A DNA stretch of 13,855 nucleotides from Candidatus Hermodarchaeota archaeon (GCA_016839365.1 JAEOUH010000035.1:1-13855), one strand, 5' to 3'; shown: positions 4,462 to 13,855, counted from the stretch's first letter. Made by a program: numbers and translations. Notes: generated from the letters alone by a model not told the origin.

Positions 4462-5142
4462 CTAACGATTACCCTTCTGTTTTTCAGGTAATTCAAACAC
4501 GATCACCTTATACATCGGAGTCCACGGAAGAGTCTCAGTAAAGGTAAATCCCAAGGGTTCCAACCTTGTAGCAAACCAATCTGCATTTCTGATAGGAGTA
4601 ACACGAAAGGTTTGGGGGGCGATCCGAAACGCCACGCGTCCCTTTGACTTAAGAATTCGATGAATTTCTTTGAACAGGGTATTGGGTGTTTTCAAACTAT
4701 TCAGTAATCCAGTTACCGATGTAACAAGGGTAAAAGTAGAATCACCAAACGGGAGAGGGAGTTGGACATCTCTGCATAGGAATTCGACATTCTTTTGTGT
4801 TCCCTCTAATCGCGTTTGGCGTTGGGCCTCGTGAATCATCTCTTCAGACCAATCAATGCCAACGACGCGACCACGAAACCACCGCTGTCTTGCGACGAGA
4901 CGTGGTAGGTGCCCAGTTTGTGTGCCCAGATCCAAAATCTCTTCCGCGGGGCTAATCTTTAATCGCTTGATTAAGTGCTCCCATAGCTTCCAATCATTGC
5001 GCACCTCAAATGAAACCGATCGACGATTATACCCCCATCGCATGAGACGTTTACCAAAATAGCGTCCCTCGGTGGCTATGATAAAAATAAGAAATGCGGT
5101 GACTATGCCACTGATTGCTAGAACTAAAAACAAAACCCACAT
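4462..5142 (-). CDS. Class I SAM-dependent methyltransferase with N-terminal transmembrane anchor
   Basis: Motif I ILDLGTQTG, VVGIDWSEEMI, LPFGDSTFTLV, EIHRILKSKG. Hydrophobic N-terminus MWVLFLVLAISGIVTAFLIFII. Start moved to ATG 5142 because the longer ORF overlaps the divergent gene. Confidence 0.88.
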   Translation of the reverse strand: MWVLFLVLAISGIVTAFLIFIIATEGRYFGKRLMRWGYNRRSVSFEVRNDWKLWEHLIKRLKISPAEEILDLGTQTGHLPRLVARQRWFRGRVVGIDWSEEMIHEAQRQTRLEGTQKNVEFLCRDVQLPLPFGDSTFTLVTSVTGLLNSLKTPNTLFKEIHRILKSKGRVAFRIAPQTFRVTPIRNADWFATRLEPLGFTFTETLPWTPMYKVIVFELPEKQKGNR

Positions 5143-5231
5143 AGTGTCAATGCTATAAAGGACTGCATGGAACTTAACTTCTTTTAGGAAGAAGCATCCA
5201 TAATAAGGAGATTCATTAGGATGGATGCATA

Positions 5232-7787
5232 ATGGCATCAACTGCCAAAAAAATCGGAAAACTAGCAATTCCACTCGCTCTTATCATCAGTATGTCAATC
5301 CTCCTCGTCATTCCGTTGGATATCATTCCGCCACTTGGAGGACTCATCGACCCATTCACGGGAATCTGGACAGTATACGAAGATGCGGAACATCCTCCTT
5401 TCGCAATGGCTCATATTCCAGGCCTATCCGAACCCGTAACGGTCATCCGAGACAACTGGGGCATCCCCCACATCTATGCCGCTAATGAACCTGACTTATA
5501 CTTTGCCTTTGGATATGTTCAAGCCCAGGACCGACTCTGGCAAATGGACATCACCCGCCGACAAGCCCGCGGTCAACTCGCAGAAATTCTTGGTCCAAGC
5601 TATCTAGTTGCAGATCGATTTCTGCGAAATCTGGGAATGGAAAGGGCTGCCCAACAGACGATTGACCAAATGTATTCCCAACAAGATCAATACAACATCA
5701 CATTGAGGGAGAATCTCGCATCCTTCGCTGATGGTGTAAACTTCTACATTTCAAATATTGGATCAAACCTCCCCTTGGAATTTAAACTCCTTAACTATCG
5801 CCCTCACCCTTGGACACTTCTAGATTCCATTTCAGTTGGGCGAATCCTTGACTATGGTCTGTCTTGGTCTGACTCCGATCTACGATTTGCCAATACGATT
5901 GCAGAGTTAGGAAATGATTCAGCCTGGGAACTCTTTCCCCTAAATCCGCCTTTCCAGACTCCAGTAGTCCCAGAATATGGAGTTACCACGGTTCCTCCCA
6001 CCTCTTCCGCTCTCGGCAATTCAGAACTCCCTGAATCCTTACAAAAAACCATCAAGACCTTCCTCTCATGGACCGAAAACATACCTGATCCAAATAATGT
6101 CCTCTCACGATGGCAATTGGACTCTTTGGGCTCGAACAATTGGGCGGTCAATGGCACCAAATCTGCCACAGGTAGCCCAATACTCTGTAATGATATGCAC
6201 CTTCCTCGTGATGTCCCAGCAATTTGGTACCAAGCTCATCTCGTAGCAGCGGATACTGGACGAAATGTATATGGATTTGTTCCACCAGGCGTTCCGCTAA
6301 TTATTGCAGGGCACACCGAATATGTTGCCTGGGGGTTCACAAATGTTGGCGCGGATGTGATTGACTGGTACTATTATTCGATTAATCCCGAAAATGAGGA
6401 TGAATATTGGTATGACGGAGCTTGGCAACCCTTTGAAGAAGAAACCACTACCATCTTAGTAAAGGGAGAAGCACCCTACTACCATACAATAAGACGAAGT
6501 GTTCATGGACCTGTTATGTCAGATGTTGGATTCTCCTACAATGACTATGTCCTCGCTCAACGATGGACTGGTGGGGAACCAAGCTATGAAATGATAGCCC
6601 TTGACAAAATGACAATGGCGCATAATTACACAGAATTCATTGAAGGGCAAAAATTCTGGTGGACAATTTCACAAAACATCGTGTTCGCCGATATCTATGG
6701 TAATATAGCAATTCGCCCAACTGGTCATTGGCCCATTCGCGATGGATGGTTTGGTGGCTTACCACACAACGGCTCGGCGGGAGAAGGTGAATGGACTGGC
6801 TTCATCGACTTCGATGCCTTACCTTTATCCCTGAATCCTGATCGCGGCTGGGTTGTCAGTGCCAATCAACTAGCCGCAGTGCAGGGTCCCGGATTCTACC
6901 CCTATTATATTCACCAAGGTTATGATCCTGGGTATCGGGCACGACGCATCATTCAAATGCTTGAGAATGACAATGCCATCACCGTCGATGACATGAAACG
7001 AATCCAAAACGATGTACTCGATACCGCTGCTGAGGCTTTTGTACCATACTTGATTGATGCCTTTGATAATGCTGGTTCTTCGATCACAAGCGATCCGATA
7101 TTGTCTGCCGCGATTGATCAATTGCGCACCTGGAATTATACCATGCTCAAAGAATGGGTGGCACCGACCATCTGGCGAGCCTGGTTTGACTACTATTGGG
7201 AGGATGTCTTTAGCGACGAATATCCTTCCGATCGTGGGGGGCTCCTCTGGCCTTCTCCAGTAATATTAGAAAACCTCACACGGTATAATCCAAATTCGCA
7301 TTGGTTCGACGATATAACTACAGGAGCCGTTGAATCCCGTGATGATATCATAATTCGGTCATTTCAAGCAGCTATGACCCGGTTAGGCGACGAAGAAGGA
7401 TCTGACGTCAATGAATGGACTTGGGATAAATTCCACTTTGTTGTCTTTTCTCATCAGGTGGGTGGAGCCTTGGGACACGCTCCTATACCTGCTGATGGAA
7501 GCGCTGTCACTGTGAATCCATCACGGGTAGATATGTGGGCTCGTGAACAAGGCGCCTCACGGGGTGGAGCGAGCGAGCGTCTCATTGTTAATTTCAATGA
7601 TCCCTTGCACGCAGTGAGTGTAATTCCTGGAGGTGAAAGTGGAAATCCGCTTTCACGACACTATAGCGACCAACTCTTTCAACTTTACCTTGTTGGAGAC
7701 TATCATGTCGACTATCTCTACTTCGATCAAGAGGATCTCCTTTTCTCTGCGTTTCGAGTGGAATCCATCCTGATACTAACGGGGTGA
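5232..7787 (+). CDS. Penicillin acylase family (peptidase S45) Ntn-hydrolase precursor, membrane-anchored or secreted
   Basis: VIRDNWGIPHIYA, GYVQAQDRLWQMD, the autoprocessing site GSNNWAV (Ser codon 6132-6134, residue 301), NDMHL, WGFTN, SANQ, PGGESGNP. Hydrophobic N-terminal segment. Confidence 0.93.
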   Translation: MASTAKKIGKLAIPLALIISMSILLVIPLDIIPPLGGLIDPFTGIWTVYEDAEHPPFAMAHIPGLSEPVTVIRDNWGIPHIYAANEPDLYFAFGYVQAQDRLWQMDITRRQARGQLAEILGPSYLVADRFLRNLGMERAAQQTIDQMYSQQDQYNITLRENLASFADGVNFYISNIGSNLPLEFKLLNYRPHPWTLLDSISVGRILDYGLSWSDSDLRFANTIAELGNDSAWELFPLNPPFQTPVVPEYGVTTVPPTSSALGNSELPESLQKTIKTFLSWTENIPDPNNVLSRWQLDSLGSNNWAVNGTKSATGSPILCNDMHLPRDVPAIWYQAHLVAADTGRNVYGFVPPGVPLIIAGHTEYVAWGFTNVGADVIDWYYYSINPENEDEYWYDGAWQPFEEETTTILVKGEAPYYHTIRRSVHGPVMSDVGFSYNDYVLAQRWTGGEPSYEMIALDKMTMAHNYTEFIEGQKFWWTISQNIVFADIYGNIAIRPTGHWPIRDGWFGGLPHNGSAGEGEWTGFIDFDALPLSLNPDRGWVVSANQLAAVQGPGFYPYYIHQGYDPGYRARRIIQMLENDNAITVDDMKRIQNDVLDTAAEAFVPYLIDAFDNAGSSITSDPILSAAIDQLRTWNYTMLKEWVAPTIWRAWFDYYWEDVFSDEYPSDRGGLLWPSPVILENLTRYNPNSHWFDDITTGAVESRDDIIIRSFQAAMTRLGDEEGSDVNEWTWDKFHFVVFSHQVGGALGHAPIPADGSAVTVNPSRVDMWAREQGASRGGASERLIVNFNDPLHAVSVIPGGESGNPLSRHYSDQLFQLYLVGDYHVDYLYFDQEDLLFSAFRVESILILTG

Positions 7788-8377: not shown

Positions 8378-10129
8378 ATGAAGAAACTGGTTCATCATGG
8401 CGTTCGTGTAGCAAAACTGCCAGCAACGACTGGGATGGTTCTCACCATCAGGGGTACAGACTATACACTGAATGCACGGCAAGAAGAAATGATGCGAGCC
8501 TTCGTTTCGAAACGCCATCTTGGTTACTGGGAGGATCAAGTCTTTGTGCGCAACTTTCTAAAAGATTTCAGCAAAGCCTTGGGTATCAAACCTGTTCTGA
8601 AACCCCAAGAAGTCAATCTAGAATCTTTGTTTCGTGAAGGTATCACCCAACGGGAACATGAACTGCAGCAGAAAGAAGCCATGACCAAAGAGGAACGAAA
8701 AGAATTAGCCGCACAGCGGAAAGAAATCCGGGAAGCCTTACGTGCTAAGTATGGGTATGCGGAAATTGATGGTGAGCGCGTGGAAGTGTCGAATTGGACC
8801 GCGGAGCCCAGCTGTATCTTCATGGGTCGAGGTACACATCCCCTTCGTGGACGATGGAAACCAGGACCCCAAGAAGAGGATATTACGCTAAATTTGAGCC
8901 CAGATGCACCCATGCCTGAAGGGAACTGGGCTGGGCGCCTTTGGCAACCCGATAGCCTCTGGCTGGCAAGATGGGAAGACAAACTCTCAGGAAAAGTCAA
9001 GTACGTCTGGGTATCGGATACCGCTACGATCAAACAGGATCGGGAAGCCCAAAAATTCGCGGTAGCCCAACAGCTGGCGAAGCGTATCAATAGCGTGCGC
9101 CACTCAATTCAGAATGACTTGAATTCCAATCAGCCTAGACGACGAAAAATCGCCACCGCTTGTTATCTGATTGATGCGTTAAGCTTGCGTGTAGGTGATG
9201 AGAAAGACCCCGATGAGGCTGACACTGTAGGCGCTACCACACTCCGACCTGAACATGTCACAATTAGAGAAGATGGGGTAGTCGAGTTTCAGTTTCTTGG
9301 AAAAGATTCCGTACCTTGGCACAAGACCGCGAAACTACCTCCTGAGGTTGTAGACCAATTACAGGTGCTGATAGATAATGCCAGAGCACCCCGCTCTGGT
9401 GATCGGCGCGGTCATCCGAGCCTTGACCGCCCCCAAATATTTCCCGATGTGAAGAGTCGTAACGTTAACGCCTATCTTTCCGAAATCCTGCCGGGACTTA
9501 CCGCCAAAGTCTTCCGCACATACCATGCCAGCAGCACTGTTCGGACTTCCCTCAGCCGCGCAAAAGTAAAGCCCGTCGACCCGAATTGGATAAAGAAAGA
9601 TGCCGCAAAGCGGGCGAATCTGGAAGCTGCAATTGTATGTAATCACACTAAACAGGCACCTAAAGGTTGGAACGCCCGGCTCCAACGCTTTCGCGAACAG
9701 CAAAAACGCGCAAACGAACGCATTGCCAAGGCGAAAGAAAACCTAGCAGCTCGACAAGCCCGTCAAAAAGAACTTGAAGCCAAACAACTGGCTAAACTCA
9801 AGCAATTACAGGAGAGAGGCCACCCTATTCCCCGGGGTAAGAATCGGCCCTTCGCCAGTTCAATTGCCTCAGCTCGAAGAAGCGTTGAAACTGCCAAAGA
9901 GCGCCTTGCACGTGCCATGGACGCAAAGGCGAAACTCAATTCGCAGTATGATATTGCCAAGAAAACCCGCACCTGGAATCTGGGAACGAGCCTCAAGTCC
10001 TACATTGATCCGCGCATCTATCGCGACTGGGGTCGCCAAGTTAAGTACGATTGGAAGGATTTCTACCCCTCAACCTTACAACGAAAATTCGCTTGGATTG
10101 ACAAAGACGACCAAAACAATGAATGCTAG
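8378..10129 (+). CDS. top1: DNA topoisomerase IB, eukaryote/archaeal long type
   Basis: IFMGRGTHPLRG, LRVGDEK..EADTVG, FLGKDS, LTAKVFRTY, CNH, LGTSLKSYIDPR. All five catalytic residues (R, K, R, H, Y) are present, with a coiled-coil linker before Tyr542 (10001-10003). Confidence 0.96.
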   Translation: MKKLVHHGVRVAKLPATTGMVLTIRGTDYTLNARQEEMMRAFVSKRHLGYWEDQVFVRNFLKDFSKALGIKPVLKPQEVNLESLFREGITQREHELQQKEAMTKEERKELAAQRKEIREALRAKYGYAEIDGERVEVSNWTAEPSCIFMGRGTHPLRGRWKPGPQEEDITLNLSPDAPMPEGNWAGRLWQPDSLWLARWEDKLSGKVKYVWVSDTATIKQDREAQKFAVAQQLAKRINSVRHSIQNDLNSNQPRRRKIATACYLIDALSLRVGDEKDPDEADTVGATTLRPEHVTIREDGVVEFQFLGKDSVPWHKTAKLPPEVVDQLQVLIDNARAPRSGDRRGHPSLDRPQIFPDVKSRNVNAYLSEILPGLTAKVFRTYHASSTVRTSLSRAKVKPVDPNWIKKDAAKRANLEAAIVCNHTKQAPKGWNARLQRFREQQKRANERIAKAKENLAARQARQKELEAKQLAKLKQLQERGHPIPRGKNRPFASSIASARRSVETAKERLARAMDAKAKLNSQYDIAKKTRTWNLGTSLKSYIDPRIYRDWGRQVKYDWKDFYPSTLQRKFAWIDKDDQNNEC

Positions 10130-10963: not shown

Positions 10964-11347
10964 ATGAGAGCGTTAACTTGTATTGCGATTCTCTTTGGAA
11001 TCATCGCCATCGCTGCGGGATTCCTCGGTTTGATGTTCTTCATAGCCACAGTCGGTGACATCGTCGCCAATCAAACGACTGCCCTCATGCTCTTCGGTGC
11101 AGCAGGGATTATGATAGTCGTCGCCATCATTCTGGGCTATCTTGGCCAACGGCAACCAGAACGGGTCGTCGTCAAAGCCCAAGTCGATCTCCCTGGTGAC
11201 TTTGATGTTAGTCAGGTTAAATGCCCCCATTGTGGTGGTTCACCCGATCGTGAACACCTCGCCTACGATCCCCGAATTGGTGCAGTTGTTCTCACCTGCC
11301 CCTACTGTAACAGAGTCTCCCAACTTGTCGAAGATGTCAAATGGTAA
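10964..11347 (+). CDS. Hypothetical protein: two N-terminal TM helices and a C-terminal Zn-ribbon
   Basis: Two long hydrophobic segments followed by CPHC-X18-CPYC, ending VEDVKW. Confidence 0.85.
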   Translation: MRALTCIAILFGIIAIAAGFLGLMFFIATVGDIVANQTTALMLFGAAGIMIVVAIILGYLGQRQPERVVVKAQVDLPGDFDVSQVKCPHCGGSPDREHLAYDPRIGAVVLTCPYCNRVSQLVEDVKW

Positions 11348-11443: not shown

Positions 11444-11812
11444 ATGCCCCCAATACCGCCTGAAACACCTTCCAAGTCAATGTCGTCGGACGACATTGTA
11501 AAACAGATTTCAAAAGTATTAGAGGACTTGAAGAAAGACGGAAAAATCATCCGAATACGAATTTGTCCCAAATGCAAATCCCCGAATATACGAGGACAAG
11601 AAACCTGGTATGATATTGGAGGCGCTATGGGAATTTCACCGCCCAAATACCGCTGCCTTCAATGCGGGTACTGGGGGCGGGTTATCCTCGAAGCTACCAA
11701 CGAAGACTTTGATGAACGGATCCTCGATGAACTCAATCGCACAGATGTTCAAAGCGCCCAAAAACTCTTGAACGACATCAACCAACAAGCAACCGAAGAA
11801 GAAGATCAATGA
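11444..11812 (+). CDS. Hypothetical soluble Zn-ribbon protein
   Basis: ICPKCKS...KYRCLQCGYWG and an acidic C-terminus. The stop overlaps the next in-frame ATG (ATGA, 11809-11812). Confidence 0.82.
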   Translation: MPPIPPETPSKSMSSDDIVKQISKVLEDLKKDGKIIRIRICPKCKSPNIRGQETWYDIGGAMGISPPKYRCLQCGYWGRVILEATNEDFDERILDELNRTDVQSAQKLLNDINQQATEEEDQ

Positions 11813-13575
11813 ATGGATGTGCACAACTGTTGACACGAATCAAACTCATGCCTCTCACTCTTCTGGCATTACTCTTCCTCATGCTCGCTAGCCCTTTCAT
11901 GTTCACACAATTTTCTGCAGTGGCTGACACACCAAACAATACCACTCTTTCGAATCGATCGAGCCCTATGAATTATGATTTCCGTGTCCTCAATGAAACC
12001 GTGCACGTCATCCCCCAAATGGATGCGTCAGTAATCATTAATTATTCCATCTCCTTCGAAAACTATGGCACCGACTTCGACTACATCGATATCGGTCTGC
12101 CGAATTCCTACTACGTGCTTTCCAGTTTCCGAGCCTATTGGTCCCTCAGCAATGCACCCTATGTTGAACTTAGCGTCGCCCCCTCTGAGGCAATCGCCAT
12201 TGGTATTGAAATCTTCATCCCGGTGGCTCTCCGACCCGGAAACGGTGAAAACGGGACAATTATTGTTTGGGGTAACCAACAACGCATGGTCTATCTTGAC
12301 ACCGATCCAGCAACTCCTGGTTATGTTGGCTACGAATTCATTCCCACCTGGTATGGGTCCAGCTATAACCGTGGGACCGATTATCTCGGCTGTCACCTCC
12401 ACTTCCCCAATGGGTTCAACAATGGCACCCTCGCCAAATACCACCACACAGCACCCACCACCTACTACTGGACTAACACCAACCTAGTCTACCTATGGGA
12501 ATACACTAACCTCCCCAACTATCAAGGACTACCCCACGGCATCAGCTTTCCCTATGACGAATCTTACATCACCACCTACTTCACCACAGGAGGAGGCATC
12601 GATTGGGGCGGGATTTTAGAGGAATACTTTGACCTCATCATCTTTGCCGTCATTGCCATTGTCATCTTTGGCGCCTGCTGTCTCAGCATTACTCGAAGCG
12701 TCCGAGCAGGTGGGACCGCTCGTGGCCTGGTCAAACGCGGCTATCTACCCCCCGCTGTGAAAGTTGAAGCACTGGGAGTTCGCCGTGGCCTCACCGTCGT
12801 AGAGGCGGCGGTACTTAACGAAGTCCCGCTCAACCGGGTGTTCACCATGATTGTCTTCGGCCTTCTCAAGAAAGAGCTCATCACCATCCAACGCGAAGGC
12901 AAAGCTAAACCCACCTTTCACCCCGACCAGGCCAACATCGCCAAGGCTGCTGGTAGCCAAGGGCGCTTCCACTACTACGAACGCCTCTTCATCAAAGCCA
13001 TCACCTCCCAAGGCAACCTTGACAAAACTGCAGTTCGCACCATGCTCAACACCCTCATCAAAACCACCGCCCGTAAACTCGAAGGCTACTCCCGCACCGA
13101 CACCAAAGCCTTCTACACCCGCATGATCGACCAGGCCTGGCGCCACATCGACCAAGCCACCACCCCCGACGCCCAAGCCAACGCCCTCAACGACTACGCC
13201 GAATGGCTCCTCCTCACCCCCGACTACGACCACCGCATCAAACCCTACCACCACTACCACGTCCCCGGCTGGTACTGGTGGTGGATCTGGGCCAGCCACC
13301 CCCGCCCCCACGTCATCACCCCCACCGTCCCCACCACCGCCATCCGCCCCACCACCCCCATCACCCTCACCGACTTCGCCAACGCCACCGTCCTCGGCAC
13401 CCAAAACTTCGCCAACAACGTAGTAACAGGATTCCAGAACCTCGCCAACCAAATCGCCACCGCCTTCCGCCCCCCACCACCCCCACCCCCCAGAAGCTCA
13501 TTCAGCGGCCGCAGCTGCGCCTGTGCCTGCGCCTGCGTATCTTGTGCGTGTGCTTGTGCGGGGGGAGGGCGTTAG
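11809..13575 (+). CDS. Hypothetical membrane protein (DUF2207-like architecture) with a polyproline stretch and a C-terminal (Cys-Ala)n-GGGR tail
   Basis: Signal/TM segment, Tyr/Asn-rich domain with several N-x-S/T sequons, TM LIIFAVIAIVIFGACC, then a basic region, P7 and CACACACVSCACACAGGGR-stop. Alternative start ATG 11848. Confidence 0.88.
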   Translation: MNGCAQLLTRIKLMPLTLLALLFLMLASPFMFTQFSAVADTPNNTTLSNRSSPMNYDFRVLNETVHVIPQMDASVIINYSISFENYGTDFDYIDIGLPNSYYVLSSFRAYWSLSNAPYVELSVAPSEAIAIGIEIFIPVALRPGNGENGTIIVWGNQQRMVYLDTDPATPGYVGYEFIPTWYGSSYNRGTDYLGCHLHFPNGFNNGTLAKYHHTAPTTYYWTNTNLVYLWEYTNLPNYQGLPHGISFPYDESYITTYFTTGGGIDWGGILEEYFDLIIFAVIAIVIFGACCLSITRSVRAGGTARGLVKRGYLPPAVKVEALGVRRGLTVVEAAVLNEVPLNRVFTMIVFGLLKKELITIQREGKAKPTFHPDQANIAKAAGSQGRFHYYERLFIKAITSQGNLDKTAVRTMLNTLIKTTARKLEGYSRTDTKAFYTRMIDQAWRHIDQATTPDAQANALNDYAEWLLLTPDYDHRIKPYHHYHVPGWYWWWIWASHPRPHVITPTVPTTAIRPTTPITLTDFANATVLGTQNFANNVVTGFQNLANQIATAFRPPPPPPPRSSFSGRSCACACACVSCACACAGGGR

Positions 13576-13817
13576 CAGGCGTGCGTATGTCAAGAATGTT
13601 AGGCATTCTGTGCTCCTAGAGTAATACCGTGGTTTCGTATGGAGAATTATTTATAGGTGATACGCTAGGCTGTACGCCGAGGTTATGGAGGAATCGTGGT
13701 CCCTCGGAGAACCATTGCGATATTCCTTCTTCTCCTTCTTTGTCTTGTTGTAGGATTTGGGATAGTACAAGTGTTAAAAATTCTAACTGCCGTGCTTGCG
13801 CTGGGGGCGGCAGATAG
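13550..13817 (+). repeat. Imperfect direct repeat of the gene end (13550-13575 vs 13792-13817) bracketing a short intervening segment
   Basis: GT GCT TGT GCG GGG GGA GGG CGT TAG vs GT GCT TGC GCT GGG GGC GGC AGA TAG. Both encode ACAGGGR-stop and all differences are synonymous. Confidence 0.8.
13792..13817 (+). pseudogene. Displaced 3' fragment of a Cys-Ala-tail gene
   Basis: Encodes ACAGGGR-stop, identical in protein sequence to the end of 11809-13575, without the upstream gene body. Confidence 0.6.
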
Positions 13818-13855
13818 TAGTATTCCAATAAAAAAGGATTCTAAACTTCTTATTC

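Follow-up and report, generated by a model that had tools for sequence, protein, structure and literature searches.

Near the 3′ end of the DNA analysed here, a 13,855-nucleotide contig from a Candidatus Hermodarchaeota archaeon, the terminus of a gene with a highly conserved C-terminal tail is encoded twice. The analysed stretch (the window) is the entire contig C93 (1-13855) of G000, a metagenome-assembled genome (MAG) of an Asgard archaeon (2.2 Mb, 84% complete). Gene A ends in ACAGGGR-stop at its own 3′ boundary (copy 1, the attached copy), and the same seven residues and stop are encoded again 242 nt downstream (copy 2, the distal copy), inside the leader of the following gene, A′. Copy 2 is real and non-random, lies out of frame, is unique to this lineage and has a sharp recombination breakpoint nearby. 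We consider it probable that copy 2 represents 26-29 nt of genuine family tail DNA that was put into the A′ leader by illegitimate recombination within a tandem array of paralogs. The contig ends 38 nt past copy 2, and every window-based statement below concerns DNA up to position 13855. The features on which the argument rests are as follows.

11809-13575, + strand: gene A (P0001, 588 aa), with a signal peptide, an outer domain, one internal transmembrane (TM) helix, a C-rich Pro/His tract and a Cys-Ala tail
13513-13575, + strand: full native tail SCACACACVSCACACAGGGR plus stop; the peptide of this 20-residue tail is identical in six of the six orthologs in which that part is assembled
13552-13575, + strand: copy 1, native ACAGGGR-stop of gene A (GCT TGT GCG GGG GGA GGG CGT TAG)
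13576-13695, + strand: intergenic spacer, opening with CAGGCGTGCG and closing with GGAGGA (13687-13692), 3 nt ahead of a GTG
13696-13855, + strand: 5′ end of A′, a leader/signal peptide beginning MVPRRTIAIFLLLLLCLVVGFGIVQVLKILTAVLALGAADSS, with its GTG at 13696; cut by the contig end
13717-13720, no strand: breakpoint of similarity to the sister genome G007, where identity falls from 75-82% to 44%
13792-13820, + strand: copy 2 core, matching 13550-13578 at 22 of 29 positions; 13794-13817 reads ACAGGGR-stop in the frame of open reading frame (ORF) 13629-13817 and VLALGAAD in the A′ frame
13818-13855, + strand: stretch after copy 2, 24% G+C, with a codon log-odds of -4.3 bits in the A′ frame

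Two copies of the gene A terminus

The duplicate had been described in an initial annotation of this DNA, and our analysis confirms it: the copies at 13552-13575 and 13794-13817 have 18 of 24 bases in common, all six differences are silent, and the 7-mer GTGCTTG reported at their 5′ edges indeed precedes and overlaps each of them. Copy 2, with the sequence GCT TGC GCT GGG GGC GGC AGA TAG, terminates ORF 13629-13817 and is read in a frame different from that of gene A. A repeat search stretches the match to 29 nt (22/29, 13550-13578 against 13792-13820), and at the 242-nt offset similarity is limited to this 26-29-nt core, identity being 28% (not significant) on the upstream side and 42% (p about 0.015) on the downstream side. 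Mis-assembly was ruled out with Logan contigs from public runs. Contigs from independent studies reproduce 13567-13855 (run X1) and 13630-13855 (run X2) with zero differences and extend 122 nt and 154 nt, respectively, past the window end.

Gene A belongs to a family for which searches of Pfam and NCBIfam gave no model. A full-library search at E≤1e-3 returned 510 representative clusters (50% identity level) of signal/TM proteins of roughly 550 aa, and in about 130 of the 150 best family representatives the C-terminus is CACACA-x-x-CACACAGGGR or a close variant, whereas identity elsewhere is only about 30%. Gene A carries this signature at its extreme C-terminus. Its orthologs within the genus are 64-89% identical, and its exact product is present in the protein collection, where it is known solely from contig C93. 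No paper on the tail motif was found in a literature search.

How often such a terminus might arise by chance was examined at three scales. Over all six frames of the 2.2-Mb genome, ACAGGGR-stop is encoded three times, in the two copies described here and in a genuine tail on another contig (C56), and the shorter AGGGR-stop has no occurrence beyond those three. Locally, Markov models of order 2-5, applied to ±300 nt on either strand, give a chance copy a probability of 3-5e-11 per position, or about 3e-8 within 300 nt on both strands; with the three tail-derived copies excluded, the same approach predicts sub-motifs of 4-5 residues to within approximately 2-4 fold. Across the phylum, we searched 400 Asgard genomes with the degenerate pattern GCNTGYGCNGGNGGNGGNMGNTRR and a reversed control. 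The pattern gave 61 matches in 59 genomes and the control gave none; more than one match occurred solely in G000, and among the 400 genomes no match other than copy 2 fell outside a tail.

These figures bear on the simplest explanation, which is that the Ala/Leu/Gly-rich end of a signal peptide reads ACAGGGR-stop in another frame by coincidence. The leader frame is the better-supported coding frame at this position, a match of 22/29 is only slightly above other short chance repeats nearby, and the finding was picked post hoc from a very large scan. Nonetheless, the local probability, the empty reversed control, the lack of other non-tail matches in the survey and the lack of another AGGGR-stop in the genome make coincidence very unlikely in our judgement.

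The purely silent character of the six differences had been read as synonymous recoding. Since family members do not vary in ACAGGGR, two genuine tails can differ from each other at silent sites alone. Pairs of genuine tails from the genus have 16-21 of 24 bases in common, and copy 2 has 15-20 of 24 in common with them (best 20/24, with G002) and carries the G-rich Gly codons typical of the genus. What was called synonymous recoding would, on these comparisons, simply be the appearance of a second genuine tail end. The accompanying argument from codon bias, which contrasted a C-biased distal copy with a G/T-rich attached one, is weak, since orthologous tails vary freely at every silent site. 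The proposal that the distal copy is a displaced original terminus stands in part: copy 2 does behave like a genuine terminus out of place (18/24, within the range of 16-21/24), but the attached copy was not imported, being contiguous with the full conserved tail and with a native post-stop motif. This motif, CAGGCGTGCG (13576-13585), is found again behind the paralog tail on C56 and, slightly altered, behind the orthologs in G005 and G007.

A further possibility is that ORF 13629-13817 is a real small protein whose mini-tail, CRACAGGGR, might act as a decoy or substrate of a recogniser of the family tail. Its 62 codons are uninterrupted and finish with the terminal motif of the family. Its GTG start lacks a ribosome site, however, the family's invariant Cys-Ala repeat is missing, and the frame has the worst codon score of the three. 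Nor is it conserved: neither the frame nor the terminal motif is kept in G007, where the corresponding frame reads ...WSGGAALV, and the product is absent from a collection of 15 billion proteins. We give this explanation almost no credence.

The spacer, the A′ leader and the recombination breakpoint

The 216 nt between the copies had been interpreted as an insert, a decayed or minimal element. They consist of an ordinary spacer and of the ribosome-binding site (RBS), start codon and leader of a presumed tandem paralog, and they are retained in G007, in which the spacer is present and the distal copy is absent. Positions 13582-13719 are 82% identical to the G007 intergenic region together with the GGAGG and start codon of its tandem paralog. 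Gene A of G007 is 89% identical to that of G000, and the paralog that follows it has an N-domain matching gene A residues 48-137 (63%).

The A′ frame is hydrophobic and remains open from 13696 to the contig end. The 53 aa of its leader that lie in the window match the G007 leader (BLASTP E=7e-4; 62% of second codon positions conserved) and do not match gene A; a search of 5.8 billion clusters found no protein sharing the A′ N-terminus. Copy 2 begins about 33 codons into this leader, near ...GCC GTG / CTT GCG..., one base out of register. We also compared 13700-13791, read in the tail frame, with the gene A 3′ end (WDSTSV against CACACA), and homology was rejected, the identity of 28% not being significant.

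A marked discontinuity lies between the spacer and copy 2. The gene A sequences of G000 and G007 share 88.5% DNA identity and 72% identity at four-fold degenerate sites, which we use as the neutral level. Past approximately 13720 (A′ codon 8), identity to G007 is 44%, and because this value is far below the neutral 72%, the A′ leader must have been replaced and not merely diverged. A third A′ leader allele, present in run X2 with a loose end behind 13699, departs at the same codon as the G007 break. In total, at least three leader alleles have the spacer, the RBS and the first 7-8 codons in common and then diverge abruptly at one point; the alignments suggest repeated replacement of A′ or of its 5′ part. 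In other organisms sampled in runs X2 and X9, the spacer from 13605/13613 onward is preceded by different DNA. A 10-mer shared with a loose end in run X2 raised the idea that the window continues into a second copy of the spacer, and this was discarded, as the upstream part of that contig did not match the window.

The wider locus offers comparable signs of exchange. Positions 3-116 of C56 (locus L002) carry the third genuine tail (...GGGGVSCACACACASCACACAGGGR), which is 86% identical at the DNA level to the gene A tail region, including 10 nt past the stop. Since this tail is genuine, the genome must hold at least two tail-bearing genes; no other gene body of the family is present in the assembly. 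Directly after the C56 tail comes a convergent gene (140-1624, - strand) encoding a 494-aa protein with a helix-turn-helix (HTH) domain and a weak LAGLIDADG_3 match, which is single-copy in the genome. C56 is likely to be the far end of the tandem array, because a single-copy conserved neighbour directly follows its tail. The convergent HTH/LAGLIDADG-like gene also lies directly after the tail gene in G002, in G005 and on a metagenome contig. In G003 (locus L038), an extra co-directional paralog (4834-6090, + strand; 32-36% identical) is wedged before the convergent copy (6110-6931, - strand), and this is the spot that A′ occupies in G000 and G007. Which genes have been inserted between the tail gene and its convergent neighbour thus varies from species to species. 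In these Hermod-type Asgard archaea, recombination is active immediately 3′ of the Cys-Ala-tail gene, and copy 2 has some value as a marker of that activity. The HTH/LAGLIDADG-like neighbour was itself considered as a homing element that targets the tail, and was ruled out because it is single-copy and syntenic.

Origin of copy 2

We infer that the donor of copy 2 was another family tail and that the event was illegitimate recombination. Gene A keeps its native tail, and after a gap of 120 nt A′ opens with a ribosome site and a GTG of its own. According to the model that we consider probable, the A′ leader gives way after about 33 codons to the final eight or nine codons of a family tail, one base off register, at a junction formed by recombination at the level of microhomology, with no site-specific recombinase or mobile element involved. 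Copy 2 would then be idle as a tail, and the VLALGAA-DS read in the A′ frame would merely happen to suit the end of a signal peptide.

Two versions of this model can be envisaged, and we hold them to be about evenly balanced. In the stub version, A′ or a further paralog would have lost its body through a deletion that fused codon 33 of the leader to the nine terminal codons of a tail. In the intact version, a whole A′ would have absorbed the fragment as its signal-peptide cleavage region. The 38 nt that follow copy 2, with their 24% G+C and negative codon log-odds, favor a stub, as does the absence of the N-terminus from the 5.8 billion clusters. The distribution of the six differences between the copies favors an intact gene: five of them fall at second codon positions of the leader frame, where they change V-R-E-G-V to A-L-A-A-D.

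Several observations weigh against illegitimate capture of a tail in either version. A donor with the exact 24-mer of copy 2 was not found in the genome or in the metagenome, species-representative and genome contig collections; the assembly contains no body for A′, and the contig ends 38 nt after copy 2; and there is one occurrence in one lineage. Other points concern one version each. A tail is compatible with the A′ frame if both Ala codons are GCT and no Gly codon is GGA, and approximately 1-3% of genuine tails satisfy this and read as an unbroken hydrophobic/small peptide, which counts against a stub, as do the openness of the A′ frame to the contig end and the need for a further gene to own the C56 tail. 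The intact version has to accommodate the low G+C and negative log-odds after copy 2, and it calls for short-patch capture, a rarer kind of event than deletion.

The 38-nt stretch at 13818-13855 represents either DNA flanking an orphan terminus on the 3′ side or a diverged beginning of the mature A′ domain (SIPIKKDSKLLI). It is 45% identical to the start of the mature A′ product of G007, 42% identical to the spacer at offset 242, and 42-53% identical to the 3′ flanks of several orthologs (hand counts), all of which are weak similarities. The flank and A′ similarities compete, and we treat them as uninformative.

The intact version overlaps with a distinct and possible, if tentative, explanation in which the fragment has been co-opted under selection: a piece of tail captured one base off register would now serve as the signal-peptide cleavage region of A′. 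Overprinting is the origin of new coding sequence in an alternative frame of existing coding DNA, and the resemblance here is that a single stretch can be read in two frames, giving a family tail in the first and a plausible leader segment in the second. The Ala and Gly codons of the tail frame are silent at their third positions, and these bases form the second positions of leader-frame codons; adaptation toward Leu and Ala could thus have left the tail reading intact, and the shift from V-R-E-G-V to A-L-A-A-D counts in favor of such adaptation. VLALGAA-DS fits a site of the Ala-x-Ala type within a frame that stays open and hydrophobic to the contig end, and the 1-3% of tails that are compatible by chance makes an unselected fit uncommon. 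The alignment with the G007 leader runs across the copy 2 segment (V..GA.[DE], E=7e-4), and the C56 tail provides an end for an intact A′. Co-option is opposed by the lack of coding signal after the patch and by the lack of any protein with this N-terminus in the 5.8 billion clusters. In addition, no second lineage carries copy 2. The case also departs from overprinting in that the leader frame alone can be used here, the tail reading being a relic. If true, co-option would constitute a small example of coding DNA reused in a shifted frame.

An old slippage event on GTGCTTG could, in principle, have generated copy 2 by tandem duplication of a 242-nt unit made up of the tail end, the spacer and the leader, with the second unit having since diverged. 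The spacing of the 7-mers corresponds to exactly one unit, and the weak similarity after the stop at this offset (42%, p about 0.015) is in the expected place. Upstream of the core, however, there is no similarity at the offset (28%); neutral decay would not keep eight codons perfect while erasing the remainder; and G007 has the first unit and not the copy. We consider a tandem duplication very unlikely.

Comparison with known systems

The initial annotation had cast the Cys-Ala tail as an attachment or cassette-exchange site of an undescribed system, in which an integrative element brings a replacement gene end. The precedent is the insertion of e14 or phage 21 in E. coli icd, where, as outlined in PMC13626634 (citing Hill, Gray and Brody 1989, PMC210168), the prophage supplies a replacement 3′ end and leaves icdC, a C-terminal pseudogene. 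The likeness is evident, as in both cases a 3′ end occurs twice, the attached copy keeps the gene whole, the other is an orphan C-terminal fragment, and the differences are mainly silent. The icd copies flank a 15-kb prophage that encodes its own integrase, they repeat a long stretch of the gene, and excision has been observed. Here, in contrast, 216 nt of spacer and gene start separate the copies, the duplicate consists of 26-29 nt lying out of frame in another gene, and neither a recombinase nor an empty site nor excision was found.

An element acting at the tail would account for a gene end duplicated with silent-only differences and a common 7-mer, for the species-to-species variation in what immediately follows the tail gene (A′, an additional HTH/LAGLIDADG-like gene, or the convergent neighbour itself), and for the sharply different A′ leader alleles, of which there are at least three. 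Several lines of evidence oppose it. Pfam and NCBIfam searches of all sizeable ORFs on the contig gave no integrase or recombinase, and there is no tRNA, no Rfam match, no terminal inverted repeat and no second genomic copy. The DNA between the copies is short and is kept as spacer and gene start in G007, the attached tail and post-stop motif are native, and in the core only 7 nt are identical, with 22/29 matching overall. The degenerate pattern detected no empty-site allele ending GGC GGC AGA TAG in the 400 Asgard genomes, and neither empty nor island-bearing alleles were seen among six orthologs and the metagenome loci, which also lack a second copy or an ending of the distal type. No excision joints were reported in Logan contigs of four runs, though such contigs drop rare forms. 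Nor did the duplication recur anywhere in the 400 genomes. We regard a tail-targeting element as largely refuted and highly improbable. A repeated mobile element at the contig end was separately ruled out, as 13700-13855 has no other copy in the genome.

Chimeras of cpsG/manB offer a second comparison; they are attributed to deletion or unequal exchange between tandem paralogs (PMC13626634). As in those chimeras, the paralogs here appear to be arranged in tandem, similarity ends at a sharp breakpoint, and a terminal fragment lies beside an intact copy. Events of the cpsG/manB type, however, involve long homology and produce in-frame hybrids, whereas here no more than a few bases of homology exist at the junction, the fragment lies in another frame, and the partner's body is unseen. 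A remnant or patch from exchange between tandem paralogs is nevertheless a nearer kind than icd, and the unusual detail is that the relic lies out of frame in the leader of the next gene. When a peptide is invariant, any stray copy of its coding DNA will look synonymously recoded and can in this way mimic gene-restoring integration of the icd/e14 type. Copy 2 looks like a single, lineage-specific recombination scar that by itself matters little, and the protein family is the more interesting object.

With regard to the gene A family, the 13.9-kb contig has no radical SAM/SPASM gene detectable with Pfam or NCBIfam among all sizeable ORFs, and the genome contains two SPASM-domain genes (C87:43182-43367 and C18:5074-5253). 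Upstream of gene A are genes for a zinc-ribbon membrane protein and a 122-aa protein (10964-11347 and 11444-11812), and these keep their order in every related locus examined, forming a three-gene module with gene A. In four related MAGs (G012, G014, G005 and G010), the gene A ortholog breaks at a contig end, at residues ~494-538, within the C-rich Pro/His tract, and in three of the four (G012, G005 and G010) the remaining C-terminal part is found on a separate contig; this tract appears to defeat short-read assembly. Elsewhere in the window, 8378-10129 encodes a full-length eukaryote-type topoisomerase IB with Topoisom_I_N, catalytic core and C-terminal domains.

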